Of a stretch of DNA of 64,000 nucleotides, positions 1 through 15,304 are shown one piece after another. Position 1 is the stretch's first letter. Each line of letters opens with the position of its first letter. Below the pieces are notes generated by a model. That model made no database searches. It was not told the DNA's origin and saw nothing but the letters and a program-made list of their open reading frames with translations. A program made the position numbers and the translations under genes. This stretch comes from Desulfomonilia bacterium (GTDB lineage Bacteria > Desulfobacterota > Desulfomonilia > UBA1062): contig JBEKDT010000013.1 of the NCBI GenBank assembly GCA_050014195.1, forward strand, positions 32,001 through 96,000, in the 5' to 3' direction.

Positions 1-2946
1 AATGATGTCGTTGAGGTTCGATTCCAATATTTCGACGTATGCCCCCTGCTTTTCGTCAAGATTACCCAGTTTCAATTTATCCAGATAGGGGAGGGCAAGC
101 TCTTTTATGTTTGAGAGCACCTTCTCCTCAAGCTCATTCTTGTCCTGTTCGCCGCGCTTGAGAAGAACCTTCAGCGCGGTATTCGCTTCTTCGAGGTGAA
201 GCGATTCAAGTCTTAACTCTTCTTCTTTCTGCAAGAGGCTTTGCTCTGCCTGCTTGCGTTCTTCGATCTCCTTTTTAAGCCTGATATTTGCTTTAACCAG
301 CTCCTCTGTCCTTTCTTCCACCCGCTGCTCAAGGCTCTCATATGCCCTCTGGAGCTTCTGTTCGGTGATCTTGCGCTCTGTGATATCAACGAAAGAACAC
401 ATAAGGCAGATCGGTTTGCCGTCATCATTATTCACCATACTGGCAGTGATCTGCAAGGCGATGGGCTTGCCGTCCTTTCTGACTGCTATAATCTCGCCGA
501 ACCAATCCCCTTTCTCAAGGACGGAATGAAAAATCATATCCGCCTCATTCTTCGATTGGGCAAAACTCAAGGCTGATTTGCCAAGAACTTCTGATACGTC
601 ATTTCCACCCCAGAGACGCATGAAAGAATTGTTGACATAAGTGATGTTACCATTGAGATCGCCGATTGCGATCCCGTTGATAGAGGATGCAATGGCAAAG
701 TCCTTGATCTTGAGTTCCTCCTCCATGTGCTTGCGCTCTGTGATATCCACGAAAGAATCCATACCGTAGATGGGTTCACCTTTTTCATTGCGTACCATGT
801 TAACGGAGAGGTGGATGGTAATGGGTGAGCCGTCTTTCCGGTAACCTGATACCTCACCGGCCCAGCCTCCCTTCTCCCAGACAGTCTGATAGATCTCCAA
901 TGCCTCTTCTTGTGATTTGGCAAGGTTGAATGCAGATGTGCCGATTACCTCCGATGCATCATCGGCACCCCACATCTTAACTGCTGCATCGTTCACATAG
1001 ATGATATTACCTTCAACATCGGTAATACCGATGCCGACTATAGATGATGCAATAGCAAGATCCTTGATCCTGAGATCTTCCTCCATACGCTTGCGTTCGG
1101 TAACATCAACAAAGGAATCCATCAAACAGATCGGCTCGCCCTTTTCATTTCGCACAAGGCTCGCCGAGATGTGTACGGTTATGGGAGATCCGTCCTTCCT
1201 GTAGCCTGAAGCCTCGCCTGACCAGCTCCCTTTTTCAAAGATGGTCCTATAAATCTCGAGCGCCTCTTCCTCTGACTGAGCTAAGCTGAGCGCAGAGGTA
1301 CCGAGTACCTCTGCGGCATCTTCTGCCCCCCACATCTTAACTGCGGCGTTGTTCACATAAATAATGTTTCCTTCAAGATCACTGATCCCGATCCCATCGA
1401 TGGAAGATGCAATGGCAAAGTCTTTTATCCTGAATTCTTCCTCCATGCGTTTGCGTTCGGTAAGATCAACAAAGGAATCCATCATACAGATGGGCTCACC
1501 CTTTTCATTACGCACAAGGCTTGCGGTGAGATGTACTGTAATGGAGGACCCGTCCTTCCGGTACCCTGAAACCTCACCGGACCAACTTCCCTTTTCAAGG
1601 ACTGTCTGGTAGATCTCAATGGCCTCCTTTTCCGACTGGGCCAAGCTGAGTGCAGAGGTGCCGATCACCTCTGATATATTTTCTGCACCCCACATCTTGC
1701 GTGCAGCCTCATTGACATAGATGATGTTGCCTGCAAGGTCGCTGATGCCTATTCCATCGATAGAGGAAGCAATAGCGAAGTCTTTGACCTTGAGTTCTTC
1801 CTCCATTCGTTTGCGATCCGTTATGTCTACGAAGGAATCCATAGTGCAGATGGGTTCGCCTTTATCGTTGTGCACCAGGCTTGCGGTGAGGTGAACCGTG
1901 ATGGGGGAGCCATCTTTTCTTCTCCCAGTTATCTCACCTGACCATCCGCCCTTTTCCATGAATTCTTCAAACACCTTGAGTGCCTCTTCCTGGGAATCAG
2001 CGAATTCCAGGGCCGACATCCCGAGGACCTCGGAAGGATTATCCGCTCCCCACATCCTGAGGGCAGCCTCATTCATATAGATAATATTCCCCTCCAGATC
2101 ACCGAAGCCGATTCCATCGAGAGAGGAGGCTATAGCACTGTCTTTGATCCTCAGCTCGTTCTCAATACGCTTACGATCGGAGATATCGAGAAAGGAGCAC
2201 ATCAGGTTTATGGGTTCACCTTTTTCATTTCGCACGAGGCTTGCTGAAAGATGTACGGTAATCGGGGAACCGTCCATGATTTTACCGGTAATTTCTCCTG
2301 TCCAATAGCCTTGCTCATTGACAATATTCATGACCCGAATGGCCTCTTCCTCTGATTGAGCAAAAACGGTTATAGGTTTGCCCAGGATGTCAGCCGGGTT
2401 ATCTGTGCCCCACATCTTCAGCGCAGCTTTATTTACATAGGTGACATTTCCCTGGAGATCACCGATTGCTATTCCGTTGATGGATGATGCAATGGCGCTT
2501 TCTTTTATGCGGAGCTCTTCTTCGATATGCTTGCGGTCTGTTATATCAATAAAGGAGCACATCATACAGGTGGGCGTATCTGCCTCGTCGCGTACAAGGA
2601 ATGCAGACAGGAGAACGGTAATGGGCAAGCCATTCTTTCGTCTTCCAATGATCTCGCCTGACCACTCACCTTTTTCAAGAACGGTATGCATTATATTAAT
2701 CGCTTCCTGTTCTGACTGGGCAAAAACCGTAGCCGACTTGCCGATGATCTCGGATGGATCGTCAGTTCCCCACATCTTGAGGGCGGCATTATTCACATAA
2801 GTGACCACACCGTCGAGGCCGCCGATGGCGATACCATTTATGGAAGAAGCGATGGCATAGTCCTTGATGCGCGGGCCATCTTTATGAAATGATCTCTCGC
2901 TACCATTCATCAGTGAAATCTCTTTGGACGTTGATTCCTCAGCCAT
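1..2946 (-). CDS. Multi-PAS (7 x PAS/PAC) sensory transcriptional regulator, probably with a LuxR-type HTH beyond the window edge; 3' truncated
   Basis: Not in the ORF track. Read by hand: ATG at 2946 with GGAGG upstream; segments translated at the start, middle and end are all in one open frame. Seven 120-aa units of the type RIKDFAIASSIDGIGISDLEGNIIYVN..MWG..RKDGSPITVH..DVTERK. Ends LEEANTALKVLLKR..EEKVLSNIKELALPYL..ILESNLNDII, the linker I recognise from deltaproteobacterial PAS-LuxR proteins. Confidence 0.88.
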   Translation of the reverse strand, partial: MAEESTSKEISLMNGSERSFHKDGPRIKDYAIASSINGIAIGGLDGVVTYVNNAALKMWGTDDPSEIIGKSATVFAQSEQEAINIMHTVLEKGEWSGEIIGRRKNGLPITVLLSAFLVRDEADTPTCMMCSFIDITDRKHIEEELRIKESAIASSINGIAIGDLQGNVTYVNKAALKMWGTDNPADILGKPITVFAQSEEEAIRVMNIVNEQGYWTGEITGKIMDGSPITVHLSASLVRNEKGEPINLMCSFLDISDRKRIENELRIKDSAIASSLDGIGFGDLEGNIIYMNEAALRMWGADNPSEVLGMSALEFADSQEEALKVFEEFMEKGGWSGEITGRRKDGSPITVHLTASLVHNDKGEPICTMDSFVDITDRKRMEEELKVKDFAIASSIDGIGISDLAGNIIYVNEAARKMWGAENISEVIGTSALSLAQSEKEAIEIYQTVLEKGSWSGEVSGYRKDGSSITVHLTASLVRNEKGEPICMMDSFVDLTERKRMEEEFRIKDFAIASSIDGIGISDLEGNIIYVNNAAVKMWGAEDAAEVLGTSALSLAQSEEEALEIYRTIFEKGSWSGEASGYRKDGSPITVHISASLVRNEKGEPICLMDSFVDVTERKRMEEDLRIKDLAIASSIVGIGITDVEGNIIYVNDAAVKMWGADDASEVIGTSAFNLAKSQEEALEIYQTVWEKGGWAGEVSGYRKDGSPITIHLSVNMVRNEKGEPIYGMDSFVDITERKHMEEELKIKDFAIASSINGIAIGDLNGNITYVNNSFMRLWGGNDVSEVLGKSALSFAQSKNEADMIFHSVLEKGDWFGEIIAVRKDGKPIALQITASMVNNDDGKPICLMCSFVDITERKITEQKLQRAYESLEQRVEERTEELVKANIRLKKEIEERKQAEQSLLQKEEELRLESLHLEEANTALKVLLKRGEQDKNELEEKVLSNIKELALPYLDKLKLGNLDEKQGAYVEILESNLNDII
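361..2880 (-). repeat. Seven tandem 360-bp coding repeats (PAS domains)
   Basis: CACATC recurs at 971, 1331, 1691, 2051, 2411 and 2771. Units begin at 2880, 2520, 2160, 1800, 1440, 1080 and 720. Confidence 0.92.
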
Positions 2947-3131
2947 CAGTTTGTCCTCCGGGAAAAAGATACTATCTTTTCTTTTAACGAAACTCCATAT
3001 ACCTCTATAAATAGATTTTATTCTAAGTTGATATATACACAACAACTTGGAGATATGGGAAGTTTAACTTGAAGTTATGAAAGAAATCAGTTGTCTTACC
3101 CGATACCCTACGGCTGATTACCATATTCTTA

Positions 3132-4208
3132 TCAAAATGGCATGACAAGACCGACAGCAAAGTTTGCCACGAACACCTCGCTAAAGACTCCAACATGTTT
3201 GGGGTTCTCATAGCTATATGTGGTGACGTCATTACCGCCGATTGTTGGGGGGTTTGGGGTTGTTGCAATAGAGATCTGAAGGATCGGGTCGAATGTCTTC
3301 AGGTCATACCAGGTAGTACTCGCCTCTGCTACAAATTTAAGATTATTATATATTGGGACAGACATACCGCCAAGTAATTGCAGCAGCATGCCATTGACTG
3401 TCTGAGAATTATTCAGAGTGATTAAGTAATCAGGGCCTGCAAAATATTTATTTATTAGGTCCTTGCTGTCCGAGTGACGGGTTGCTATGCAGTACCCAAG
3501 GCCTCCACCCAAATAGGGACTGATCTTCCCGATTTGATCGAATTTGTACAGGGCGTTTAATGTGACAGGGAATATATAGAAGTCAGTGTGTACGTCGATC
3601 TGTTTCAGTGATTCGGAACTGGTGATCTGGTATACCCCTCCGCTACTGTACCCTATCCCAAGATTTTCCGCAGGCAAATCTTCGGCGTTAATAGTGGTTT
3701 GGCCTGCCTGGCCATAGTTACCTGGAGACCATTCCTCTGAGGCAACTTGAACGGATTTCCTGTCGCCCTTTATTGACCAATCGCCGGTAAGCATCATTGC
3801 ACCGAGACTAACACTTAGTGATAAATTTTCATCGATCTTTTGCCCAACACCGATTGATACGGATCCACCATAATTAAGGAATTCACGGAAAGTTCTGTCA
3901 AGGAGCGGTACAGCCACCCCGGTTTTCACAAAATAGAACATATTTTTTTCTTGAACAGTAGCCGCAAGAGCTTGATGAGATGGGTCAACCGTCTCGACCT
4001 GAGCTACCATAGTCCGGCTGTCTTTATCTTTGTGATCAATGGAGGTTGGTAATAAGGTATTACCGAGTGCATCAGTTGCTGGAGGCTGACCTATTGAGAT
4101 TGTTTGGCCATGCTGAGTTGCCGGGGTCGGTTGATCACCCTCTGATGCGGAAACAACCTGAGTTGAGGCTAAAATTAAAAATATTACAAATATGAGTTTT
4201 CTCTTCAT
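3132..4208 (-). CDS. Outer-membrane beta-barrel protein (OmpW/OmpA-like barrel with long insertions)
   Basis: Signal peptide MKRKLIFVIFLILASTQVVSA (start 4208; the ORF track starts at 4238), strand motif PVTLNALYKF..ISPYLGGGLGY, C-terminal Phe. Confidence 0.7.
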   Translation of the reverse strand: MKRKLIFVIFLILASTQVVSASEGDQPTPATQHGQTISIGQPPATDALGNTLLPTSIDHKDKDSRTMVAQVETVDPSHQALAATVQEKNMFYFVKTGVAVPLLDRTFREFLNYGGSVSIGVGQKIDENLSLSVSLGAMMLTGDWSIKGDRKSVQVASEEWSPGNYGQAGQTTINAEDLPAENLGIGYSSGGVYQITSSESLKQIDVHTDFYIFPVTLNALYKFDQIGKISPYLGGGLGYCIATRHSDSKDLINKYFAGPDYLITLNNSQTVNGMLLQLLGGMSVPIYNNLKFVAEASTTWYDLKTFDPILQISIATTPNPPTIGGNDVTTYSYENPKHVGVFSEVFVANFAVGLVMPF

Positions 4209-4487
4209 TCCCGAGACTCCAGAGTCTTGCACAGTCATTTCAATACCTTATATGGAATTATCGTTTATTATTATAATATACCACTAAAATTTATAGCAAA
4301 ATATGAGTATCTGTTAATGCATAGTTTTTTCATAGCAAAAAATATTCCTTAAATATGCATTTATAATTCATTGATATTGCGGTGATTATCTTATGATACT
4401 ATTACCTATTCATAACTGTAGGGAAAGTATATCCCTTATCAGGGAAAAACATTTCACACTCGGCACCCTGCCTAAAGAGGGTTTATG

Positions 4488-4515
4488 TTGACAAAAGACC
4501 AAGACTAAGGTCTTT
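4488..4515 (+). promoter_or_regulatory. Possible sigma70 -35 (TTGACA) abutting a palindromic operator AAAGACC-N8-GGTCTTT
   Basis: TTGACA at 4488-4493; perfect 7-bp inverted repeat at 4494-4500 and 4509-4515 in the divergent intergenic region. Confidence 0.35.
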
Positions 4516-4583
4516 AATGTCTTCAAATAAAGTTGTTCATATTATAAGAGAAAGAATTACTATGAAAACCTAACTGCGTAAAT

Positions 4584-5105
4584 ATGGAAATGAGTCTTCT
4601 TAAAAACTACACCATGCCGGGGCATACAGAAGGATCGTTTATGAAATTATATAAGTGGCCTGTTCGATTTATTATTATTGTGTTAGGATTATCGGTTTGT
4701 TTATATATTTTTTGGCCTAACGTAACGTTAGCTACAGGACAAAACCTCAACCCGAGAGAACCTTTTCATACATCATTTTTAATTCAAAACAAATCAATTT
4801 ATCCGATCTATGATGTTAAATGTGATTTTATATTTAATACTATTGAGGATGATAACCATCATGTATTCAGCAAATTGTCGGCCAATATCGATACGATGAA
4901 TTTAGAAAGTCTGGGCCGAACAGAAAGCAGGCCGATCATTTTCAAAGTGGCAATTAACGGGTTGGAAAAGGGCATACAAGGAGCTCATATTACTTTATTG
5001 TTATCATACAAATTACCAGTTATCGGCATAAAAATTTCAAAAATTATTCCTTTCACCGTTGAAAGAACCTCTACAAATACATACGAATGGTCCGAAAGCC
5101 ATTGA
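4584..5105 (+). CDS. Hypothetical membrane-anchored protein
   Basis: 173-aa ORF with one N-terminal hydrophobic helix and a beta-rich remainder; the true start may be later. Confidence 0.6.
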   Translation: MEMSLLKNYTMPGHTEGSFMKLYKWPVRFIIIVLGLSVCLYIFWPNVTLATGQNLNPREPFHTSFLIQNKSIYPIYDVKCDFIFNTIEDDNHHVFSKLSANIDTMNLESLGRTESRPIIFKVAINGLEKGIQGAHITLLLSYKLPVIGIKISKIIPFTVERTSTNTYEWSESH

Positions 5106-5216
5106 TGCTCATTACAAATTAGCTGTATTATAGATTTTGCTTGGTATGATGGTTTTGATTCTGTTAAACAATGGAGACGTTTCCTTGATAATATCTCTCA
5201 AAAAGGAGGGACTGAT

Positions 5217-6107
5217 ATGATAAAAGGTGGAAATAACAAAAGGTTCCTCGCTGTTTTTATTGTCTCTCTGCTCCTTATTGCAGGGTGCAGTTCAAGTAAT
5301 GGTACTGCGAACATTACCAACCCATATGAAACACAAGATGCTTCTGGTGTATGGCTGGGATATATAGGCAATGCTTTTGTTATAGGCATCATTACAACGG
5401 ATGATAATGAAAATTATTCGGGACGCTTTATGGGCCAATATAATGAAAGCAAAGTATTCACGCAATTTTTAACCCCGGATGGGTCTTATCTGACACAAAC
5501 ACCTGAGACGGCTATCTATACGGGAACTCTTGAAGAATGTGTATGGGACACTACTGGCCCTGATTACTACAATAAATTGCCACTTCAGACACTATCAATA
5601 TTAAGCAGTGTATCTGCGAAAAGTGTTTTTGGAGGGCCGCTTTTCAGTTCAGCAGTATATAATGAACAACCTTATATTCCAGAGCAAATACAGACAGGAG
5701 AATTGATATTATATTATAACACCACCTATGATCTATCGCCGAATGTCAACAATCTTTCTGGGCAGTGGGAAATAACGAATATATTAACGAAAGGTAATAC
5801 CCTAATCTTAACAATAACACCCGATACGGCAGGTACTAATGGGACAACGCATATTTCGGGTAGTGACACGAAGGGTAATCAATTCGACGGGACAATTACT
5901 ATTCATGTTACCCCGGTGCCTCATAACATATATGATGTGAGCCTCAAGATGAATAACAGTATTGACCTCACCGGCCTTGTCACGTATGTACTGGAAGAAA
6001 CATCGGCAGGAGAAGGAATATCACTCCCACAAAAGACACTTGTTATCGGTGCAACAGACAAGGATAAGAACTATTCCTTAAGCGGACTTGCAAATAAAAA
6101 GGAGTAA
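5217..6107 (+). CDS. Lipoprotein of unknown function
   Basis: AGGAGG RBS, lipobox LIAG-C followed by SSS, Thr/Gly-rich beta-type sequence. Confidence 0.8.
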   Translation: MIKGGNNKRFLAVFIVSLLLIAGCSSSNGTANITNPYETQDASGVWLGYIGNAFVIGIITTDDNENYSGRFMGQYNESKVFTQFLTPDGSYLTQTPETAIYTGTLEECVWDTTGPDYYNKLPLQTLSILSSVSAKSVFGGPLFSSAVYNEQPYIPEQIQTGELILYYNTTYDLSPNVNNLSGQWEITNILTKGNTLILTITPDTAGTNGTTHISGSDTKGNQFDGTITIHVTPVPHNIYDVSLKMNNSIDLTGLVTYVLEETSAGEGISLPQKTLVIGATDKDKNYSLSGLANKKE

Positions 6108-6150
6108 AATCAATCGGTGAGCAGAAGGTATCATCATAATGTAAAATATA

Positions 6151-6326
6151 TAGGGTATCTCTAAAAATTGATGATCTCGAAAAAGAATGAGCGATCTCAT
6201 CCTCAGTGTCATTCCCGCGGAAGCTTCGAATCCAGTTATTTTGAGTAGTTCTGGACCTCCGCTTTCGCGGGGGTGACAATAAAAATAAATTCGTATGAAA
6301 TCCCCTGCATTTTTAGAGGTACCTTA
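6151..6326. mobile_element. MITE/REP-like palindromic element, copy 1
   Basis: Outer inverted repeats TAGGGTATCTCTAAAAAT / ATTTTTAGAGGTACCTTA (16/18, TA ends) enclose core 6207-6278 TGTCATTCCCGCGGAAGCTTCGAATCCAG..CTGGACCTCCGCTTTCGCGGGGGTGACA. Confidence 0.7.
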
Positions 6327-6472
6327 TAGTGATTCAGTATGGTTGAAAGCCCGTGGTATCCGTGGAATGATGACCGGTTATAAGTAAAATATTTTTTGGA
6401 ACCCAGGTCACGTTAGTTGAAAAACTTTTCTCTGAAGCATGGCAATTTCTTTCCACTTTTCTTCGGCAGGAA

Positions 6473-6485
6473 CAATGCATTGATT
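6473..6485 (-). promoter_or_regulatory. IHF binding site
   Basis: Minus strand AATCAATGCATTG is a perfect WATCAA-N4-TTR, about 30 bp upstream of the sigma54 motif. Confidence 0.55.
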
Positions 6486-6515
6486 ATAACTAATTGAAAT
6501 ATAGATATTATTATA

Positions 6516-6531
6516 TGGCAAGCTTATTGCT
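6516..6531 (+). promoter_or_regulatory. Sigma54 (RpoN) -24/-12 promoter
   Basis: TGGCAAGCTTATTGCT: GG-N10-GC with TGGCA and TTGCT, directly upstream of the first operon gene. Confidence 0.72.
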
Positions 6532-6545
6532 ATTATCAAAGGCGT

Positions 6546-7268
6546 ATGACTATCAGACACCTTTTGGGCCTGTGGGTTTATAAGATGAATTGGAATAAGT
6601 GGATTAGAGGTTTCTTGACACTTATTCTTTCCATGGTTGTGATGATCATGTTATCCGCGCCCCTTTATGCTGATGTGAACGTCCAGGATCTGGAAATGGG
6701 GACCCACGATTATATCATTGACAAACAGCAGTCATTTAATTGTTCCATGGTCCAGATGAGTGATAATGAGCTTTCCGACGTGACTGCCGCCGGTTTTTCC
6801 AGTTTCACGTGGGATAATAGTATCCCAGATATTAGTGTCGCCACGGCATATCTCAATATCCAGACGAGCACGTTCACTGAGATCCAATCCCTTAAGATGG
6901 GTTATCATAATAGTGGCTGGGATGAAGACTGGACGAATGTTTCGCTTGGTTCATCAACGCAGGATCTTGTTTGCAAAGGGTTCACTATTCAGGCTAGTTT
7001 CTCAAACCTCACCGATCCGGCAACGAGAACACTCAACAGCCTCACAGTTGGCACCCCTTCGATGACCGGCCCCATCAGTGCCTACTTCAATTCGTTTACC
7101 GGGCATATAGGGAACGGTACAGATACAGGAGGGGTCGACTATACCCGGACAGACCTCTCAAGCTCCGGCACCGTCGTGAGGACGATCTATAGTAACAGTG
7201 ATAAGTTCTATATACAGCTTTCAAGCACAGGTTGGTTGTTTTACTGGAGAAATGGTACGCTCAATTGA
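6546..7268 (+). CDS. Secreted FilA/DUF6160-related minor subunit with C39-type leader
   Basis: Signal peptide ending APLYA; internal leader MVQMSDNELSDVTAA-G; Ser/Thr-rich beta sequence. Start may be 6585. Confidence 0.65.
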   Translation: MTIRHLLGLWVYKMNWNKWIRGFLTLILSMVVMIMLSAPLYADVNVQDLEMGTHDYIIDKQQSFNCSMVQMSDNELSDVTAAGFSSFTWDNSIPDISVATAYLNIQTSTFTEIQSLKMGYHNSGWDEDWTNVSLGSSTQDLVCKGFTIQASFSNLTDPATRTLNSLTVGTPSMTGPISAYFNSFTGHIGNGTDTGGVDYTRTDLSSSGTVVRTIYSNSDKFYIQLSSTGWLFYWRNGTLN

Positions 7269-7526
7269 GAAAGGCTTATAAAGAAGTTATGAAGACACAC
7301 AGGGCACTTACACTTAAAGTATGTAAATGCGATTCAATCGGGAGAGGGAGGTCTTTGCAGTGATTCTCCCAGCCCTGTGCATTTTATAAGGAAGGAAAAA
7401 TCGAAAAGGGGGTGATGCTTGGGTAGTAGGACTAAGTAGGACTAACCAATACAGACCAACAGGAAAAAAGGAAATGCATTAACAATGACGCAACTAAGAA
7501 AAAATAAAAAATGGAGGCAAAACGTT

Positions 7527-8756
7527 ATGAAGAGAGTATTGACTATTCTGGCTATTCTTCTCCTGCCCCTTTCCGTATGGGCAATGACCCCTGTCACTGA
7601 TTCCGACCTTTCCAATGTGACAGGCCAGGCTGGCGTGAGTATCAACCAGGATGTTATGATGAACATCCATATGGACGTCATGGCATGGGGTGATACTGAT
7701 GGCCTCGGTTTAGCAGGCATCGGCACCACTTCTGCACTTAAAACCGGTCTCAACCCATGGACCGACGTTACCACGGGCGGTTACATTGGTATCAAAGGCT
7801 TTGACATGGCTCTGAGGATAAAGGCACGTACCACTGATACATACGGTGCAGCCACTGGTTCAGACACGAACGCTGTTTATGGTGTTTATAACCCAACCAG
7901 TTATCCCGGCCTCAAGCCTCTGACCATCGATGTTGCGACTACGACTGCCGCCCAGGATCCCAACCTCTATGGCGCCGGCGTGACCTTTGTTCGCATCGGT
8001 CTTGGTTCCATGGAAATCGACGTGAGCGCAATGTCGTTTGATATCGGCCTCAGCTCACATGCTGGCGTTACTGCCACCAATGCCCCGACTCTTAATCAGA
8101 TTCTCGGCACCGTATCAATGGGTAACATCGGCATCTTCATCAGCCCCTACAGCTATGTTGACATCTACAATGGCGCCAGAGGAACAGGTTCTGGTGTAAC
8201 CTTCGGCATCCACTTCCAGATCGATCAGTTCAACATGGACTATATCTCATGGGGTGACAAGGATGGCTTTACCAACGTCGACACAAGCGATAATGCTGGT
8301 ATGCTACCAGGCTACACCAATACTAATCCGTTCCCCTGGGCCGCAGCAACTAAGGGCGGTTATATAGGGCTTGGCACGCTTAGGGTTGGTGGACCGATCA
8401 CGATCACAGGCACCGTGAATATTGACGTGGGTACTGTGACAACCGGTTACTATGCCTCGGCTGCCGCTATTCTGACCGGTGGTACAATAACAAATGTGCC
8501 GATGGTCCACATTACATTCGGGAATATGTCTGCTGCTGCTGGCGGACCCGCAGCGGGCCCAGCTTATGCTAACGGTGTAGGCCTTGAGGTGAATGTCCCC
8601 TCGATTATGGCAAACATAGCCCTTAGCGACACAGCAAATTTACTGAATAATTTTACTGGTTCCGTGCCGTCTGCAAATGTGTTGGGTGACATCTACATCA
8701 GCAACTTTAATTTCAAGATTATTAAAGGCAGCTGGGTAGACATCTTTGCCCACTAG
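7527..8756 (+). CDS. DUF6160/FilA-like secreted protein, probable major fibre subunit
   Basis: GGAGG RBS at 7513, start 7527 (ORF track 7485). Signal peptide LSVWA, then MTPVTDSDLSNVTGQAGVSI. Gly/Thr/Ala-rich, Cys-free, internal two-fold repeat, ends WVDIFAH. Confidence 0.8.
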   Translation: MKRVLTILAILLLPLSVWAMTPVTDSDLSNVTGQAGVSINQDVMMNIHMDVMAWGDTDGLGLAGIGTTSALKTGLNPWTDVTTGGYIGIKGFDMALRIKARTTDTYGAATGSDTNAVYGVYNPTSYPGLKPLTIDVATTTAAQDPNLYGAGVTFVRIGLGSMEIDVSAMSFDIGLSSHAGVTATNAPTLNQILGTVSMGNIGIFISPYSYVDIYNGARGTGSGVTFGIHFQIDQFNMDYISWGDKDGFTNVDTSDNAGMLPGYTNTNPFPWAAATKGGYIGLGTLRVGGPITITGTVNIDVGTVTTGYYASAAAILTGGTITNVPMVHITFGNMSAAAGGPAAGPAYANGVGLEVNVPSIMANIALSDTANLLNNFTGSVPSANVLGDIYISNFNFKIIKGSWVDIFAH

Positions 8757-8768
8757 TTGATTACTTGC

Positions 8769-8811
8769 GAGGAAACAGGGGGGCTTTGTCTCCCCTGTTC
8801 CTCCTTTTATT
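8769..8811 (+). terminator. Intrinsic terminator/attenuator after the major subunit gene
   Basis: GAGGAAACAGGGG..CCCCTGTTCCTC stem followed by CTTTTATT. Confidence 0.7.
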
Positions 8812-8859
8812 GATATGGAATGAAATGAGGATAAAGCGGAGGGATAATAAAAGGACATT

Positions 8860-9738
8860 ATGAAAAAAAACATTCTCCTATTTCTCGCAATCCTGATGCT
8901 GCCGGTTACCGCAGGTGCCATGACGCCTATCAGCGATCACGAGCTTTCGAATGTGACAGGCCAGGCCGGGGTGAGTATCAGCATGGATGTTATGATGAAC
9001 AGCACCTTTGGTTCATTCAAGTTTTCAGACACCGACAACGATCCTGTAAACTGGATCGAGTTCAACAACATAACAATCACAAGCCGATGGGAAACACTTC
9101 AGGGCAGCCCCCCAATTACCTTAGATATAGCTACCGGGAACAACATAGATAATACCGAGAGGACATGGGTTAACCTGGTTTTATCTCAGTATTCGCAGCC
9201 TGAAACATGGGATATCGGTAATTTCGTTTTCGTCAACCAGGACATCGGCAATCTCCAACTTGAAAATATGATGATGGCAGAGCCTGCTGTTTTGCGTTTC
9301 TCCGCGCATCCCGGCGTTGGAACATCAGGACTGGAATTTGAGTATTTGAGCAGTTGGATGGCCCAGGATATTTCCTATAATTATAATACATCTGGGGGCA
9401 ATCTCCAACTATCCGGCATACATTTTGCGGCATCAGCGAGCAGCCCCACCGATGACCCGAGCAATCCTTCTACCTGGCAGTTCACCGGATCGTTCCGCGT
9501 GGGAGATCTAATGGGAGGTAACATCCCTGTTGACAGCACCAACGCCTCTGTTCCTAACCCTGCAACCTTTGATGTAGGCACCACTTCAGACGGGTATACA
9601 TCCGTGTATCTTAATCTTCCGCTCAAGGGTACGATCAGGGTTGCGGATGTACAGTTCGGAGGTCAAGATCTCGGTCCTATCGCCATTGACGGTATTGTTG
9701 CGCACCATCTTTTTGTAAAGATCGGTGGAGCTAACTGA
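8860..9738 (+). CDS. DUF6160/FilA-like secreted protein, second paralogue
   Basis: Signal peptide VTAGA, then MTPISDHELSNVTGQAGVSI, nearly identical to the previous gene's N-terminus. Confidence 0.78.
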   Translation: MKKNILLFLAILMLPVTAGAMTPISDHELSNVTGQAGVSISMDVMMNSTFGSFKFSDTDNDPVNWIEFNNITITSRWETLQGSPPITLDIATGNNIDNTERTWVNLVLSQYSQPETWDIGNFVFVNQDIGNLQLENMMMAEPAVLRFSAHPGVGTSGLEFEYLSSWMAQDISYNYNTSGGNLQLSGIHFAASASSPTDDPSNPSTWQFTGSFRVGDLMGGNIPVDSTNASVPNPATFDVGTTSDGYTSVYLNLPLKGTIRVADVQFGGQDLGPIAIDGIVAHHLFVKIGGAN

Positions 9739-9758
9739 CCATTCATTAGTCAGACCTG

Positions 9759-10523
9759 ATGCCTATTGTTATCGGCTTTTTTATCATATTGACTTTCCTT
9801 GGAACCATGTATCCCCTCAGAGACATTCCCAAGGGAGACATGCAGATTTTTCCCCATATGGCCGGGATAGAGAACCTCCCGCTTAGATATAATGTACAAC
9901 CATTTACTGAAGAATTCAATTTCAAGAATGTTGTGAAACAGCAATATGATTATAGCTGTGGCTCCGCTGCCCTTGCCACGCTTCTCAACTATTACCTTGG
10001 GGAGCAATTCAGCGAGCAGCAGGTAATTCAGGGCCTCATGCACTATGGCGATGCCGAGAAAATCCAGGAGCGAAGGGCGTTCTCACTGCTCGATATGAAA
10101 CGTTTTTGTGAGGTGCTCGGGTATAAAGCTGAAGGGTATAAAGCGGATCTCGATGATCTCAAGGCCTTACATAAGTCTGCAATTGTCCCCATAGAATTAA
10201 CAGGATACAAACATTTCGTCGTATTCCGCGGCTTCTATAAAGACCACATTTTTTTTGCAGATCCATACAGAGGCAATTCAAGCTTTACTATTGATAAATT
10301 TCTTGAGATATGGAGCCAGAATGTCATCTTCGTTGTATCGAGTGAGACCGTGCAGACGAATGCCCTTCGGTTGAAGAACGAAGACTTGCGAATCATCGAC
10401 TATGACTTCACAAAAGATGCAATAGCACAAATACCCATTCCCCAAACCATCACGGAGCAGCAGCGATTGATCGAATCTCTGGGCGGGAAAGTATTTAAGA
10501 CCCAAAATGGGAATGTATATTGA
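9759..10523 (+). CDS. Stand-alone C39 family cysteine peptidase (FapD/FilB-like)
   Basis: QQYDYSCGSAALATLL (catalytic Cys), YKHFVV (His), FADP (Asp), FSLLDMKR; N-terminal hydrophobic segment; no ABC domain. Confidence 0.9.
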   Translation: MPIVIGFFIILTFLGTMYPLRDIPKGDMQIFPHMAGIENLPLRYNVQPFTEEFNFKNVVKQQYDYSCGSAALATLLNYYLGEQFSEQQVIQGLMHYGDAEKIQERRAFSLLDMKRFCEVLGYKAEGYKADLDDLKALHKSAIVPIELTGYKHFVVFRGFYKDHIFFADPYRGNSSFTIDKFLEIWSQNVIFVVSSETVQTNALRLKNEDLRIIDYDFTKDAIAQIPIPQTITEQQRLIESLGGKVFKTQNGNVY

Positions 10524-10611
10524 CGACACTTGATATTGTAAGATTAACGCTTTGTATTCGCAATTAAATAATGTATTAAATAAAATATTCATACTATGCG
10601 AGGGTCTATCA

Positions 10612-11679
10612 GTGAGACAAGCTTTGTTAGTAGGACTGATGGTCATGTTCATAATGGGTTCAAGCAGGGTTTTATATGCAGATGATCAGCCAAAGAATGA
10701 TAACTCCCAACAGGAGCTGCTTGATCGGATAGATACGCTGGAAAAGGAGCTGCAAAAGCTCGAGGAGGAAGGCAAGGCAAGAAAGAGCCTGGAAGTCACC
10801 GAAGAGGAAAAGGGTGAGAAAGAAAAAGAGGTGCTGGAGGCAGTAAGCAGGGAATATACCCTTTCGGCCAAAGGCACCTTGTCAATAGATTATGGTCTCA
10901 ATTATTCCTATTCCCCGAGTGAAACTATTTATACTACGGCACAGGCGCTCCAGTTGCAACGTGCTGTAAATCATACTATTACAAATTCCATTTACACCTC
11001 ATACAGTTTTCTGGACAACCTCACGACAAGCCTTAGCCTGCCCATTGTTTACCGTTATGACAAGGTGGGGACAGACCAAAGCCTTAGTGAAACAGATATC
11101 GGAGATATATCATTTGGGTTTGCCTTCCAACTCCCCCATCAGCTTAAAATACCTGGAGGTATTACTAGCACCTACAGCTTTGGCGCCGCATTTCCCACAG
11201 GCCGGAGCCCATACAAAATCAACCCGAATACCGAGCTCTCTACAGGTAGCGGAGAGTACTCGTATTCATTAGGGGGCAGCTTCAGCAAACAGATTGATCC
11301 TGTAGTTGTATTCTGGAGCCTTGGAATAGGATACCCATTAGGTCTCAAGAATCTCAATTACAAGATATCGGACACGTACACATTGGTTAAAGTAGACCCC
11401 CCACTTTCCTATAGTCTCAGCATGGGTATGGGGTATGCTCTATCATATGCCAACTCCATCAATATGTCATTCTCTTACGCATATGCACAATCAACAAAAC
11501 TGACCTATAAGGAATTAACATCACCTGTTAAAACGGGAGACAGTGTTTCTGCTTCATTTGGAGTGGGTATGGGCTTTATGGTTACACCCAAGACGACTGT
11601 ATCGGTCTCGCTTGCATACAGTCTGGTAAGTGCAGGGTTCTCGTTGTCCACCAGAATACCTTTTGATTTTGTGTTGTGA
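10612..11679 (+). CDS. FapF/FilC-like outer-membrane beta-barrel secretion channel
   Basis: Probable GTG start at 10612 (ORF track 10552). Signal peptide, acidic coiled coil (ELLDRIDTLEKELQKLEEE), barrel with GDISFG, FPTGRSPY, TGSG and KQIDPVV motifs. Confidence 0.78.
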   Translation: MRQALLVGLMVMFIMGSSRVLYADDQPKNDNSQQELLDRIDTLEKELQKLEEEGKARKSLEVTEEEKGEKEKEVLEAVSREYTLSAKGTLSIDYGLNYSYSPSETIYTTAQALQLQRAVNHTITNSIYTSYSFLDNLTTSLSLPIVYRYDKVGTDQSLSETDIGDISFGFAFQLPHQLKIPGGITSTYSFGAAFPTGRSPYKINPNTELSTGSGEYSYSLGGSFSKQIDPVVVFWSLGIGYPLGLKNLNYKISDTYTLVKVDPPLSYSLSMGMGYALSYANSINMSFSYAYAQSTKLTYKELTSPVKTGDSVSASFGVGMGFMVTPKTTVSVSLAYSLVSAGFSLSTRIPFDFVL

Positions 11680-11692
11680 GGAGGTTAGTCAG

Positions 11693-13390
11693 ATGAAGAG
11701 ATTCCGCTTTACCTTCCTTTTCATCCTGATTTTAATGACATATTTACCTTCCACACTGTTTGCAGCCCTGTACGAACAGCTTGCCATCTCGGCCCTTGGC
11801 GGCTCCATGGGCAATGCTGTGACCGCATATCCGGAAGAAGCCGGTGCTTTGTCTATACATTACAACCCGGCAGGACTTGCGGATATCCCGGGTACGCGTT
11901 TTGATAACGGTCTTGGGATAGTCGAAACTTATCGACAGGTTACCTTTCATCAGGCCATCGACCCCATTACAGGCAAGCCCTGGGCACCGTTCGGTCAGAA
12001 TAACATTCCTGGGTTCAATAATGGGGTAGATCCGCTTAACGGTGTGAAAGCCAAGCAGTCAAGCGGATTTATGATTGTACCTTATATTGATTTTGATTTG
12101 CCATATCTTATAACACCCTCTATGGGCATCTCATATAAGCCGCCTGAGCCGCAATACTCCCGATGGACCTTTGGGTTTGGTCAGTTTGCTCCCTTTGGGG
12201 CAGGGCTCAAGAACTCAGCAAACAGTCCGTTGAGCTTCTTGGGCCAGGAGGCCTGGTTTGTGAGGATGAGCTTCATAACACCTGCTGTTGCCTATAAGCT
12301 TTCTGATACTGTCTCAATAGGGGCATCGGTGGGGGTTGGTCCGTCAATGTTCATGCTCGAGACAAATTTAAGGACCCCCAACACCATGGTCGCACTGACC
12401 GGTGCCCTTGGAAATGCGACGAAAGGTCTCGAGATCCCGGTGGTATCCGAGCTCACATTACCACCGCCCTGGTTCAACGGCGGAATGACACCATATACAC
12501 CCCAGGGTCATCTCATGCTGCAAGTGGAAGACTATATCACCACCTCTTACAACTTAGGTATTCTCTGGAAACCCTACGATTGGTTCTCCTTTGGGGCATG
12601 TTACCAGAGCGAGTCCGAAGCCAATATGACAGGAACTTTCAAGTTATCATACGGTTACCAATTCCGCAGGACGGTTGACTGGTTTGGCAGATCACCTCTG
12701 ACGATTGTTACAGCAGCCATTTTTGACTTGCCGACCCAGTCGGTACCTTACCAGGCAGGTAACGCCTCCATGGACCTGACTTGGCCGGCCCGCCTCCAGA
12801 TGGGCATAATGCTCAATCCCATTAAACAGGTGAAATTTACTTGTGATGCAAACTGGACAGACTGGGCCGTGCAGCCGGATTGGAAGTTCGTTTTTGATCA
12901 AAAGATCCAACTCTACCGTTTCGCTCGGATGCTTGGGTATCGGTATTCAACTGATACCCAGGTAATAACGCAAGACTTTAAGGACACCTGGAACTTGAGT
13001 TATGGCTGTGAGCTCAAGCCCGATGCAAAGCACACACTGCGTTTCGGGTATGACGCACGGCCGACGTCAGTCAGGAACAATCTCTTCGGGCCTTTGCCCT
13101 TCTCGGATATCACGATCTACTCTGCAGGCCTCGGGATCGTGGTAGATGACAAGCCCAAGCCCAAACCGCGGAACTTCAATGAACGCTTGCAACAGCTCAA
13201 TAATCCAAATGAAATAAACATTACGGTGAGTTACATAAAACTTGCTGATAAGACCGTCTTGAGCAACACCAGTAAAAACCTCAACTCCACGACTTTCACC
13301 GACATTGTTTATAATCCCTATTCAGGGCTCGATTGGACTCAGAAGATGCACCTATGGTGGTTTTCAATAGATCAGGTTTTCAAGTGGTAG
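11693..13390 (+). CDS. FadL-family (FilD/AupA-like) outer-membrane transporter
   Basis: GAGGAGG RBS, start 11693. SMGNAVTA..SIHYNPAGL hatch motif, PAVAYKLSDTVSIGASVG, C-terminal FKW. Confidence 0.85.
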   Translation: MKRFRFTFLFILILMTYLPSTLFAALYEQLAISALGGSMGNAVTAYPEEAGALSIHYNPAGLADIPGTRFDNGLGIVETYRQVTFHQAIDPITGKPWAPFGQNNIPGFNNGVDPLNGVKAKQSSGFMIVPYIDFDLPYLITPSMGISYKPPEPQYSRWTFGFGQFAPFGAGLKNSANSPLSFLGQEAWFVRMSFITPAVAYKLSDTVSIGASVGVGPSMFMLETNLRTPNTMVALTGALGNATKGLEIPVVSELTLPPPWFNGGMTPYTPQGHLMLQVEDYITTSYNLGILWKPYDWFSFGACYQSESEANMTGTFKLSYGYQFRRTVDWFGRSPLTIVTAAIFDLPTQSVPYQAGNASMDLTWPARLQMGIMLNPIKQVKFTCDANWTDWAVQPDWKFVFDQKIQLYRFARMLGYRYSTDTQVITQDFKDTWNLSYGCELKPDAKHTLRFGYDARPTSVRNNLFGPLPFSDITIYSAGLGIVVDDKPKPKPRNFNERLQQLNNPNEINITVSYIKLADKTVLSNTSKNLNSTTFTDIVYNPYSGLDWTQKMHLWWFSIDQVFKW

Positions 13391-13458
13391 ATTGAATTTA
13401 GATATAAGGTTCATCACCGTAAAGCATACTCGGATCATTGAGGAGCACACAGAGGGAT

Positions 13459-13668
13459 TTCTCACCACGAAGGACACGAAGCATCAATTTGATGAACTCT
13501 CGACCCGGGTCATTGGCTGTGCCATCGAGGTACATCATATTCTAAATGAAGTTGGCAGGTGTTAAGACCGGCCTGCTGATCAACTTCAATGTGAAAGTGC
13601 TTCGGACGGGTGTTAAGCGTTTTGTCCTATGATCTTCTTCGTGCTCTTCGTGTCCTTCGTGGTGAGAA
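13459..13668 (+). pseudogene. Internally deleted GxxExxY-family gene bounded by perfect 23-bp inverted repeats
   Basis: N-terminal fragment FDELSTRVIGCAIEVHHIL (from 13488) joined out of frame to C-terminal fragment MKLAGVKTGLLINFNVKVLRTGVKRFVL* (13546-13632). Ends are TTCTCACCACGAAGGACACGAAG and its exact reverse complement at 13646-13668. Confidence 0.8.
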
Positions 13669-13795
13669 CAATAGGTTGGGAAAGGATGCAAACCATATTT
13701 CATGAGCTTGCTTCACAATAGCAAAACCTGTATAGGATAAATTGATCGTTATATCTGGTCATACTGAACTATCTGAGAAAAGGAGAAGGTCCAGC

Positions 13796-15304
13796 ATGAA
13801 AATTTCAATACACTATCTGGTTATAATCTGTGTATTTCTCTTTATGGTAAACGGGCCGGGCTTTGCGGCCGATAACACGATAATCAAAGAAGATGTATAT
13901 GTTGTTATAAAACCGATTCCGGGGTTTGGAATATATGCCAATTCAATGGTCCCTAGTCCCGATTCCAATCATTTGGCATGCGTTGCAAAGAAAGGGGATA
14001 AATATTGCACTATCTACGATGGAAAACCACTTACACTTTATGATTCGATTGCGAAAGGTACACCTACCTTCAGTCTTGATTCTGAACACATGTTATATAA
14101 AGCAAAAAAAAGGAATAAATGGGTAGTTAATCTAGATTCTAAAGAAGGAAAAACATACGCTGAGATCGGGATACCGTTTTTTACCCCCGATTGTAAACGG
14201 GTATATTATGTGGTTGAGGATTTGGGAAAACAATTTGTAGTCTTGGATGGGAAAGAGGGTGCCAAATATGATGGCATACCTCAAGAAAGGAACCTCACAT
14301 TCAGTCCGGATTCCAAACACATTGCTTATGCAGCATTTAAAAATAAGAAAATGATCGTTGTGTCGGACGGGAAGGAAGGGACGAGTTATGACCAGGTGTC
14401 TTCACCCCGCTTTAGTCCTGATTCAAAGGTATTAGTCTATCCTGCAGAGAAGAGTAAGAAGTGGCTTTTTGTAAAGAATGGAGTGGAGGATGGGAAGCAG
14501 TATGATACGATCGGCACATACACTTTTAGCCTTGATTCATCACATTTTGCATACTCTGCTAAAAAAGGTGACAAAAAATTCATGGTGCTTGACGGGAAAG
14601 AAGGGATTCCGTTCGATGATGTTGCAATGCCCATATTCAGTCCCGACTCTAAACAGCTGGCCTATCTCGGGATAGAAAATAAAAAATGGTTCATGGTATT
14701 CAACAATGAAAAAGGAAAGCCATATGATGAAATAAAAGACCTTAGCTTCAGCAGGGACTCGCTGCACCACAGCCTGACAGTAAGAAAAGGAAACAAGTGG
14801 TCCATTATTTCTGATGGCAAAGTAGGACCGAATTATGATGATATCGCTTTGCCGCTATATACCACTGATTCCAAACATCTGATTTATCTCACGAGTAACA
14901 ATAAAAAGGGGAGGATTGTTTTTGATGGGAAAGAAAGTCAACCGTATGATGTAGTATCACTCGTCGTATTCAGCAAAGACTCTCAACATATGATGTACAT
15001 GGCTAAAAAAGATGAGAAATGGTTTATCGTAAAGGATGGAAAAGAATCGGCCCACTATGATGGGGTTGCACTCCCTACATTCAGTCCTGATTCAAAGCAC
15101 TATGCATTTATCTGTTTGAAAAAAGGTGTATGGTCTATAGTATGTGACGGAGTGGAGGGGAAAGCGGAATTTGCCGGCTTCCTTAAAGACTCAAGTATCG
15201 AATTTGATTCGCCAACGCATATTCATATTCTTGCAATGCAGGTGGCGTCAGGAGGCACAACCCCTGAACTTAAATTTGTCAAGCTTACAGTAGATATAAA
15301 ATAG
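13796..15304 (+). CDS. Secreted WD40/PD40-like (TolB-type) beta-propeller repeat protein
   Basis: Start 13796 (ORF track 13742), signal peptide, about 11-12 repeats of DGKEGxxYDxIxxPxFSPDSKHxAY. Confidence 0.82.
   Translation: MKISIHYLVIICVFLFMVNGPGFAADNTIIKEDVYVVIKPIPGFGIYANSMVPSPDSNHLACVAKKGDKYCTIYDGKPLTLYDSIAKGTPTFSLDSEHMLYKAKKRNKWVVNLDSKEGKTYAEIGIPFFTPDCKRVYYVVEDLGKQFVVLDGKEGAKYDGIPQERNLTFSPDSKHIAYAAFKNKKMIVVSDGKEGTSYDQVSSPRFSPDSKVLVYPAEKSKKWLFVKNGVEDGKQYDTIGTYTFSLDSSHFAYSAKKGDKKFMVLDGKEGIPFDDVAMPIFSPDSKQLAYLGIENKKWFMVFNNEKGKPYDEIKDLSFSRDSLHHSLTVRKGNKWSIISDGKVGPNYDDIALPLYTTDSKHLIYLTSNNKKGRIVFDGKESQPYDVVSLVVFSKDSQHMMYMAKKDEKWFIVKDGKESAHYDGVALPTFSPDSKHYAFICLKKGVWSIVCDGVEGKAEFAGFLKDSSIEFDSPTHIHILAMQVASGGTTPELKFVKLTVDIK

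Follow-up and report, generated by a model that had tools for sequence, protein, structure and literature searches.

How are fibre subunits matured when they leave the cytoplasm behind a Sec signal peptide and the peptidase encoded beside them is of the family that trims bacteriocin leaders? The question is raised by a stretch of 64,000 nucleotides from a Desulfomonilia bacterium (Desulfobacterota; UBA1062; assembly GCA_050014195.1, contig JBEKDT010000013.1, positions 32,001 to 96,000 of the forward strand), referred to below as the window and numbered from its first letter. Within it, three consecutive exported proteins, encoded by open reading frames ORF1, ORF2 and ORF3, precede the gene of a stand-alone C39 cysteine peptidase, FilB. 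A sequence-only reading of the window had proposed a 15-residue motif resembling double-glycine bacteriocin leaders in each of the three, and a maturation in two steps. Our analysis supports, with a probability of roughly 70%, a Fil-type operon in which subunits carry a Sec signal followed by a double-glycine-type leader, are cut by FilB after position −1 (the last leader residue, +1 being the first mature one), and are then secreted and assembled.

A double-glycine-type leader behind the Sec signal

The three motifs were found exactly where that reading had put them (Table 1). They share one register, in which M/V/I occupies −12, S/T −11, D −10, E/D −8, L −7, V −4 and T −3; the hydrophobic residues at −12, −7 and −4, the acid at −8 and the terminal GQ or AA that had been pointed out are present in all of them. 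In ORF2 and ORF3 the leader directly follows the hydrophobic signal peptide, which ends in V-W-A and A-G-A, respectively, and the claim that these two motifs begin at the predicted signal-peptidase site agrees with what we see when the −3/−1 rule is judged by eye. In ORF1 a 25-residue spacer parts the likely signal-peptidase site (L-Y-A) from the leader. Apart from ORF1, only its closest relative (L006) has this spacer; five other proteins of the ORF1 family show no gap between signal peptide and leader. The predicted mature proteins start with AGVSI (ORF2 and ORF3) or G-F-S-S-F (ORF1), and in the alignment of the ORF1 family (A6) an invariant G-F-S comes directly after the leader. The canonical double-glycine consensus is L-S-x-x-E-L-x-x-I-x-G-G, and assignment of the three leaders to the double-glycine type, behind a Sec signal, is well supported by these sequence features.

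The motif is rare in the genome. A leader hidden Markov model (HMM), seeded with 30 pattern-found examples from loci of other genomes and then iterated, matches six of the 27,009 stop-to-stop ORFs of at least 60 residues at E <0.001, with the next match at E 3.2. The six comprise ORF1–ORF3 and three orphan DUF6160 paralogues on other contigs, adjoined by no peptidase; the expression "all three subunits" of the earlier reading is therefore right for the locus and too low for the genome, where at least three more leader-bearing paralogues exist. FilB, FilC and FilD are each encoded once, and the orphans would depend on the one FilB. Compared with NCBIfam at E up to 10, the leader regions returned FilA only. 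The paralogue on contig C2 contains one in-frame TGA within its family match and may be truncated. Two more N-terminal-like pieces were picked up by tblastn at C13:131124-131309 and C17:99461-99631.

The leader is conserved as a separate module

A search with the single FilB protein yielded no relative, and an alignment-based search succeeded: 20 aligned FilB homologues led to 80 loci in other genomes, the nearest relatives belonging to uncultured 'Deltaproteobacteria', Smithella/Syntrophaceae and Desulfobacterales. The leader HMM identified 113 leader-bearing ORFs in 50 of the 80 FilB loci, mostly as tandem groups of two to five immediately upstream of FilB. Among the 30 loci without an HMM match, 12 are left with under 2 kb of sequence ahead of FilB, and the other 18 include six with divergent leaders recognizable by eye (L013, L036, L067, L070, L076 and L084) and an ambiguous one (L085). 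The logo of 110 distinct relatives, which is HMM-selected and so leans towards the motif, gives the consensus [ILMV] at −12 (98%), S/T at −11, D/E at −10, E/D at −8 (71%), L/M at −7 (100%), V/I at −4 (93%), T at −3, G/A at −2 (G 62%, A 38%) and Q at −1 (84%), followed by G at +2 (88%). The leader begins no more than nine residues from the hydrophobic core in 103 of the 110.

The association between leader and subunit was also measured with A5, a profile built from the 70 residues that follow the Gln in 84 proteins; because A5 holds no leader, the test is by construction not circular. Searched against 1.84 billion representative proteins, A5 returned 296 matches (E up to 0.001). The top 150 were examined against criteria set beforehand: hydrophobic residues at −12, −7 and −4, G or A at −2, and an acidic residue at either −10 or −8. 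Such a pattern precedes 124 of the 135 N-terminal-most modules (10 lack it, including at least four near misses with an obvious leader, and one is truncated) and none of the 122 internal modules. As background, it occurs at 200 of the 53,713 positions of the 150 proteins, and 124 of these 200 immediately precede a first module. The commonest positions of residue +1 are 35, 36 and 38; of the 124 leaders, 116 have Q at −1, six have E, one has A and one R.

Profile comparison led to the same boundary. Between the ORF1 family (A6) and the ORF3 family (A2) only 29 columns align (probability 93.9%, E 1.5e-7), comprising the end of the signal peptide plus the leader and ending exactly at −1. ORF1 has no match to PF19657 (DUF6160), and the leader alone is common to it and the DUF6160 subunits. 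In two-module homologues of ORF3, the second module begins G-S-G-V-S-I and has no leader. By these alignments the leader is a separate module, and its likeness to bacteriocin leaders, first noticed by the sequence-only reading, goes beyond chance both in the genome count (6 of 27,009) and in the module count (124 of 135 versus 0 of 122).

FilB as the likely processing peptidase

FilB matches PF03412 at 69.3 bits (cut-off 22), the FilB model at E 1.1e-62 and FapD at E 4.6e-37; the domain match and the Cys/His/Asp set with its oxyanion Gln both place it in Peptidase C39. Gln61, Cys67, His152 and Asp168 are invariant in 20 of 20 FilB homologues and line up with the LahT and PCAT1 C39 domains (Cys and His with theirs), with profile matches of 1e-9 to 5e-9. 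Transporter models match FilB over residues 64-212 only, with their N-terminal parts, and the operon has no ATP-binding cassette (ABC) gene, so FilB is not a peptidase-containing ABC transporter (PCAT). We infer that it faces the periplasm, because FapD acts in the periplasm and a cytoplasmic cut would remove the Sec signal; the passages of PMC5557850 that locate FapD there also report that its catalytic Cys is needed for Fap secretion.

Genomic linkage points the same way. In a 301-genome sample of the phylum, DUF6160 is present in 15 genomes and a FilB-like match (E up to 1e-15) in 35; all 12 genomes with FilB at 178 bits or more, which span eight families, also have DUF6160. Taken with the catalytic set and the Fap precedent, this makes FilB the likely enzyme that cuts the leader. 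FilB-related proteins are numerous, one search giving 6,068 clusters at E up to 1e-5.

A counterpart of the leader is found in Fap. In three gammaproteobacterial Fap operons (FapB/C/D/E/F-like by NCBIfam), FapE only, and not the major subunit, carries the motif. All ten FapE-like proteins of a 301-genome sample have it soon after the signal peptide and in the same register, six of them matched by pattern and the remaining four, which differ from it in one or two respects, recognized by eye, in the form [LVI]-[STP]-[DE]-x-[ED]-L-x-x-[MLI]-R-G-[RK] followed by F or Y. FapE is described in passages of PMC5557850 as the one Fap protein for which mass spectrometry gave no N-terminal peptides; the same passages call the substrate of FapD unknown, as is repeated in those of a 2018 review (PMC6173800), and passages of a 2026 preprint say that FapD is 'involved in precursor processing', and no more. 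The motif suggests FapE, cut after R-G-R/K, as a specific candidate substrate of FapD. FapD-like matches occur in 39 of 301 sampled gammaproteobacteria, a tally that includes three genomes flagged as unpublished, whose sequences do not enter this analysis. At two loci (L111 and L112), two small ORFs upstream of a FapA-like gene carry a weaker version of the motif.

The start of the mature subunit

Profile A5 matches chain A of the PDB entry 9XFV (9xfv_A, 'bacteria pilus (like)'), a native filament whose structure was solved by cryo-EM, with an E value of 5.7e-5 (26.9 bits). Its positions 2-57 align to chain residues 2-46, with chain residue 1 at +1. The chain has 173 residues, which its own numbering counts as 38..210, and the 37 missing N-terminal residues are the size of a signal peptide plus 15. 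9XFV and the subunits of the window share the same N-terminal module (G-V-S-I ... Y-T-D-T-D), with the chain beginning at +1; 9XFV itself comes from an environmental bacterium. According to passages of PMC12956863, it is 'pilus-like-alpha', a filament imaged directly from karst-cave water, whose sequence was read from the map, aided by a UniProt entry. Those passages use the filament to validate handedness only and do not speak of signal peptides, N-terminal features or DUF families.

A5, which covers the mature N-terminal part, was the sole profile to find 9XFV; PDB sequence searches with ORF2 alone, ORF3 alone, the full-length small-subunit profile (A3) and a profile of four FilA-like proteins (A4) gave nothing relevant. 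The model of the small subunit compares with 9xfv_A at Z 4.8, with a root-mean-square deviation (rmsd) of 5.2 Å over 92 aligned residues by structural aligner. A search for the precursor found the Y-T-D-T-D signature at matching length in none of the 150 representatives (best 150 of 296).

Since family likeness ends at −1 and the 9XFV chain starts at +1, removal of the leader after G/A-Q (or A-A) is well supported by sequence and by the structure of a relative, which likewise supports +1 as the start of the mature subunit. The two-step maturation proposed by the sequence-only reading, Sec export and then C39 cleavage, accordingly stands as regards a leader behind the Sec signal and its removal after G/A-Q or A-A; its assignment of the cut to the C39 peptidase holds as likely.

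Weighing the alternatives

Several points weigh against cleavage by FilB at this site. The match to 9xfv_A is modest (26.9 bits; Z 4.8), the chain may merely start at its first ordered residue, and its sequence is map-assigned with UniProt help. Canonical C39 domains accept Gly, Ala or Ser at P1, from which Gln (Arg or Lys in FapE) departs, and the pocket would differ. FilB homologues open with a hydrophobic stretch lacking a positive n-region, so that their topology is taken from the FapD precedent and from logic, and cleavage by FilB is itself a prediction. The association is incomplete on both sides: no leader gene was seen within 8 kb in 11 of the 18 FilB loci with intact upstream flanks, L085 being ambiguous; three of the 15 DUF6160 genomes have no FilB match (G418, G346 and G539; two of these have a DUF6160 gene that reaches the end of its contig); and 23 of the 301 genomes have weaker FilB-like peptidases (84-146 bits) and no DUF6160. 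The substrates of these weaker peptidases may have other leaders or be other cargo families. Related genomes are not independent, so the counts given here overstate the association.

These points give room to the notion that another periplasmic or outer-membrane protease removes the leader and that FilB has a different target, such as the FilC channel. For a C39 enzyme, Gln is an unusual P1 residue, and three DUF6160 genomes do lack a FilB match; moreover, FapF is one proposed candidate for the substrate of FapD, which passages of PMC5557850 and PMC6173800 call unknown. We consider such a protease unlikely, given that Pfam and NCBIfam scans reveal no second protease gene in the operon, that the register fits double-glycine leaders at six positions, that 12 of 12 genomes with strong FilB have DUF6160 as well, and that the same motif sits in FapE, the sole Fap protein without N-terminal peptides in the published mass spectrometry.

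Cleavage by FilB also has to be set against a leader that stays uncut, serving as a docking or secretion signal for a chaperone-like FilB or for FilC/FilD and remaining as a flexible tail. Retention of all four catalytic residues in 20 of 20 FilB homologues, a 9XFV chain that begins exactly at +1 and not a few residues away, and between-family similarity that ends exactly at −1 make this unlikely, even though some C39-like domains are chaperones only (passages of PMC6173800), filament models routinely miss disordered termini, and the leader is at low confidence in the AlphaFold2 (AF2) models.

If the leader is cut, the bond itself could be another one, either between G/A and Q or after the G at +2. 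The residue at −2 is always G or A, small residues typical of C39 P1, −1 varies (Q, E, A, H or R) and +2 is G in 88%; yet only a cut after −1 brings the hydrophobic residues (−4, −7 and −12) and the acid (−8) into canonical spacing, and the 9XFV chain starts one residue before G-V-S-I, that is, at +1. A shifted bond is thus quite improbable. That the resemblance is mere chance, or a conserved start of the mature fold with no leader role, is suggested by the shortness of the motif and by conservation running on into +1 to +5, and is extremely improbable in view of a motif that is present in only 6 of the 27,009 ORFs of this genome, precedes 0 of 122 internal module copies, and is common to ORF1-type and FapE-type proteins, whose mature parts show no detectable similarity.

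Comparison with Fap, Fil and bacteriocin systems

The locus can be set beside three known systems. As in Fap, a probably periplasmic stand-alone C39 peptidase adjoins a FapF-type outer-membrane channel, and the fibre subunits bear Sec signals. Unlike Fap, the locus has no FapB/FapC-type amyloid repeat subunits and encodes DUF6160 beta-proteins instead, with a FadL-type FilD added. With the Acinetobacter-type Fil system, entered in NCBIfam as a 'putative pilus system', it shares the gene order, and a gammaproteobacterial fil operon (L098) contains four FilA-like genes whose leader comes directly after the signal peptide; in contrast to Fil, there is no FilE/FilF match and all scores are far below the NCBIfam cut-offs. 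The double-glycine leaders of class II bacteriocins and related peptides are removed by a peptidase of the same C39 family, as a domain of ABC transporters (PCAT1, LahT and ComA), and have the same register at −12, −11, −8, −7, −4 and −2. The leaders described here differ from them in lying behind a Sec signal rather than at the extreme N-terminus, in having a peptidase that is not ABC-fused and is placed outside the cytoplasm, in P1, which in ORF2 and ORF3 is Gln and not Gly/Ala/Ser (ORF1 has Ala), and in the cargo, a fibre subunit of 120-400 residues rather than a small peptide.

The Fil literature found concerns FilF as a vaccine antigen and pellicle expression, and no published account of this leader or of how Fil subunits mature was found. 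Two further papers, on a cyanobacterial tubular pilus (PMC12397347) and on Xanthomonas secretion (PMC12448352), proved to have no bearing on the leader.

Fold of the subunits

The AF2 model of ORF3 is all-beta, with a mean predicted local distance difference test (pLDDT) of 78.9, residues 26-30 of the leader forming a short helix; confidence drops near the predicted cut, being low for residues 33-36. The small subunit is modelled as an all-beta meander (pLDDT 80.6), again with a short helix in the leader. In both models the first strand begins two or three residues past the cut, and the predicted N-terminus AGVSI forms the first beta-strand of the modelled monomers. Foldseek gave no match at E up to 0.001 for the ORF3 model and none for the small subunit, whose best VIA result had Z 5.2. 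An outer-membrane beta-barrel, suggested by the best VIA rows for ORF3 (NalP translocator; Z 8.8, rmsd 6.4 Å, 163 residues), was rejected as lying within the common range. Because no convincing fold match was found, the subunit fold is left unnamed. The idea that the newly exposed N-terminal strand is used for polymerization, which the sequence-only reading had framed as strand donation, is speculative. Strand donation by a route other than chaperone and usher stays compatible with the gene content, as Pfam and NCBIfam scans of ten window proteins (3132-15304) gave no match to chaperone/usher families.

The operon and its surroundings

The best NCBIfam matches of the four Fil-like components are the FilA-FilD models, with scores and cut-offs in bits of 35.2/220 for FilA (NF050077), 211.9/475 for FilB (NF050078), 153.2/630 for FilC (NF050079) and 244.8/970 for FilD (NF050080). 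Against the Fap equivalog cut-offs, the FilB protein scores 127/330 with FapD and the FilC protein 49/700 with FapF. The gene order, from subunit(s) to C39 peptidase, FapF-like channel and FadL-like protein, is that of the Fil system and recurs in L098. Because all Fil and Fap scores are far below the NCBI curated cut-offs, the region 6546-13390 is classed by sequence as a Fil-type surface-fibre operon that is a distant relative of Acinetobacter filABCD and Pseudomonas Fap and a member of neither. Among the same ten window proteins, NCBIfam models for FapB, FapC and FapE had no match, and the NCBIfam scan likewise found no FilE or FilF.

ORF2 is probably the major subunit. The hairpin that follows it would fit an abundant major subunit with partial read-through. 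Coordinates are collected in Table 1.

Table 1. Features of the leader-bearing operon (window positions) and of the orphan paralogues (contig positions)
Feature	Position	Strand	Details
ORF1, exported leader-bearing protein, 'GFSSF' type	6546..7268	+	without Pfam or NCBIfam family; likely start 6585
ORF1 signal peptide	6585-6671	+
ORF1 spacer	6672-6746	+	25 residues
Leader 1, MVQMSDNELSDVTAA	6747..6791	+	ends A-A; predicted cut after 6791; leader HMM E 1.7e-4
ORF2, DUF6160 subunit	7485..8756	+	423 aa (409 aa from likely start 7527); PF19657 44.7 bits (cut-off 27); FilA match weak, 35 bits
ORF2 signal peptide	7527-7583	+
Leader 2, MTPVTDSDLSNVTGQ	7584..7628	+	ends G-Q; predicted cut after 7628; leader HMM E 1.2e-8
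Terminator-like hairpin, ORF2/ORF3 gap	8774..8799	+	10 pairs, 6 of them G-C, then T-rich tail
ORF3, DUF6160 subunit	8860..9738	+	292 aa; PF19657 65.4 bits (cut-off 27); FilA match weak
ORF3 signal peptide	8860-8919	+
Leader 3, MTPISDHELSNVTGQ	8920..8964	+	ends G-Q; predicted cut after 8964; leader HMM E 1.5e-8
FilB, stand-alone C39 cysteine peptidase, FilB/FapD type	9759..10523	+	254 aa; N-terminal hydrophobic anchor
FilB Gln61 codon	9939-9941	+	catalytic set
FilB Cys67 codon	9957-9959	+	catalytic set
FilB His152 codon	10212-10214	+	catalytic set
FilB Asp168 codon	10260-10262	+	catalytic set
FilC/FapF-like outer-membrane channel	10552..11679	+	N-terminal region rich in charged residues; NF050079 1.2e-44; FapF 3.4e-13
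FilD, OmpP1/FadL-family outer-membrane protein	11630..13390	+	PF03349 1.5e-33; NF050080 1.4e-72
Orphan leader-bearing DUF6160 paralogue (one of loci L003-L005)	C12:141470-141889		no peptidase adjoining
Orphan leader-bearing DUF6160 paralogue (one of loci L003-L005)	C2:119918-120535		no peptidase adjoining
Orphan leader-bearing DUF6160 paralogue (one of loci L003-L005)	C22:29192-29812		no peptidase adjoining

Two family-less exported proteins lie upstream of ORF1, at 4584-5105 and 5217-6107 (+), the second with a lipoprotein-like L-I-A-G-C signal. They might replace the FilE/FilF lipoproteins, which in L098 sit downstream of FilD. Directly 3' of FilD, 13742-15304 (+) encodes a 520-residue exported repeat protein with PD40/TolB-type beta-propeller repeats and a TmcD family match of 2e-37 (below cut-off). 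On the minus strand, a reading frame of at least 1,021 residues (1-3063), open to the window edge, contains six or seven PAS domains (PAS_9 1.8e-104) and is probably a multi-PAS sensor; a 360-bp tandem repeat in 3.6 copies lies inside it at 631-1911.

Proposed maturation route and its meaning

The leaders, the operon and an intact catalytic set can be read from the sequence itself, and the following route would account for them. The Sec signal peptide would carry the precursor across the inner membrane, leaving the next ~15 residues as a double-glycine-type leader. FilB, a membrane-anchored and periplasm-facing C39 peptidase, would bind this leader and cut after −1, freeing subunits that begin A-G-V-S-I (ORF2 and ORF3) or G-F-S-S-F (ORF1). 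Cleavage would probably be coupled to export through the FapF-like FilC channel, with assembly taking place outside the cell; the cut would thereby gate export.

What would be new here is the pairing of a bacteriocin-type leader with a C39 peptidase at work in the periplasm, behind a Sec signal. A wider proposition, which we advance tentatively and at slightly less than even odds, is that periplasmic C39 peptidases of the FilB/FapD class serve a widespread two-step fibre route: Sec export would be followed by removal of a leader whose last two residues are G/A and a long polar one (Q in Fil, R/K in FapE), and this removal would license passage through FapF/FilC and free the N-terminal strand that builds the fibre. 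FapE would then be the substrate of FapD, and 9XFV the first Fil-type fibre to be solved.

C39 peptidases of the stand-alone periplasmic kind are very common, and a defined leader with its cut site would give a testable substrate rule for the whole class, covering the Fap amyloid of Pseudomonas biofilms as well as the Fil fibres of Acinetobacter. As a simple sequence signature, the leader would help to find fibre subunits of otherwise unrelated folds, and it would offer a handle to block fibre assembly or to export engineered proteins. The locus would also show that a leader of bacteriocin type and its peptidase have been put to a second use outside the cytoplasm, following a Sec signal.

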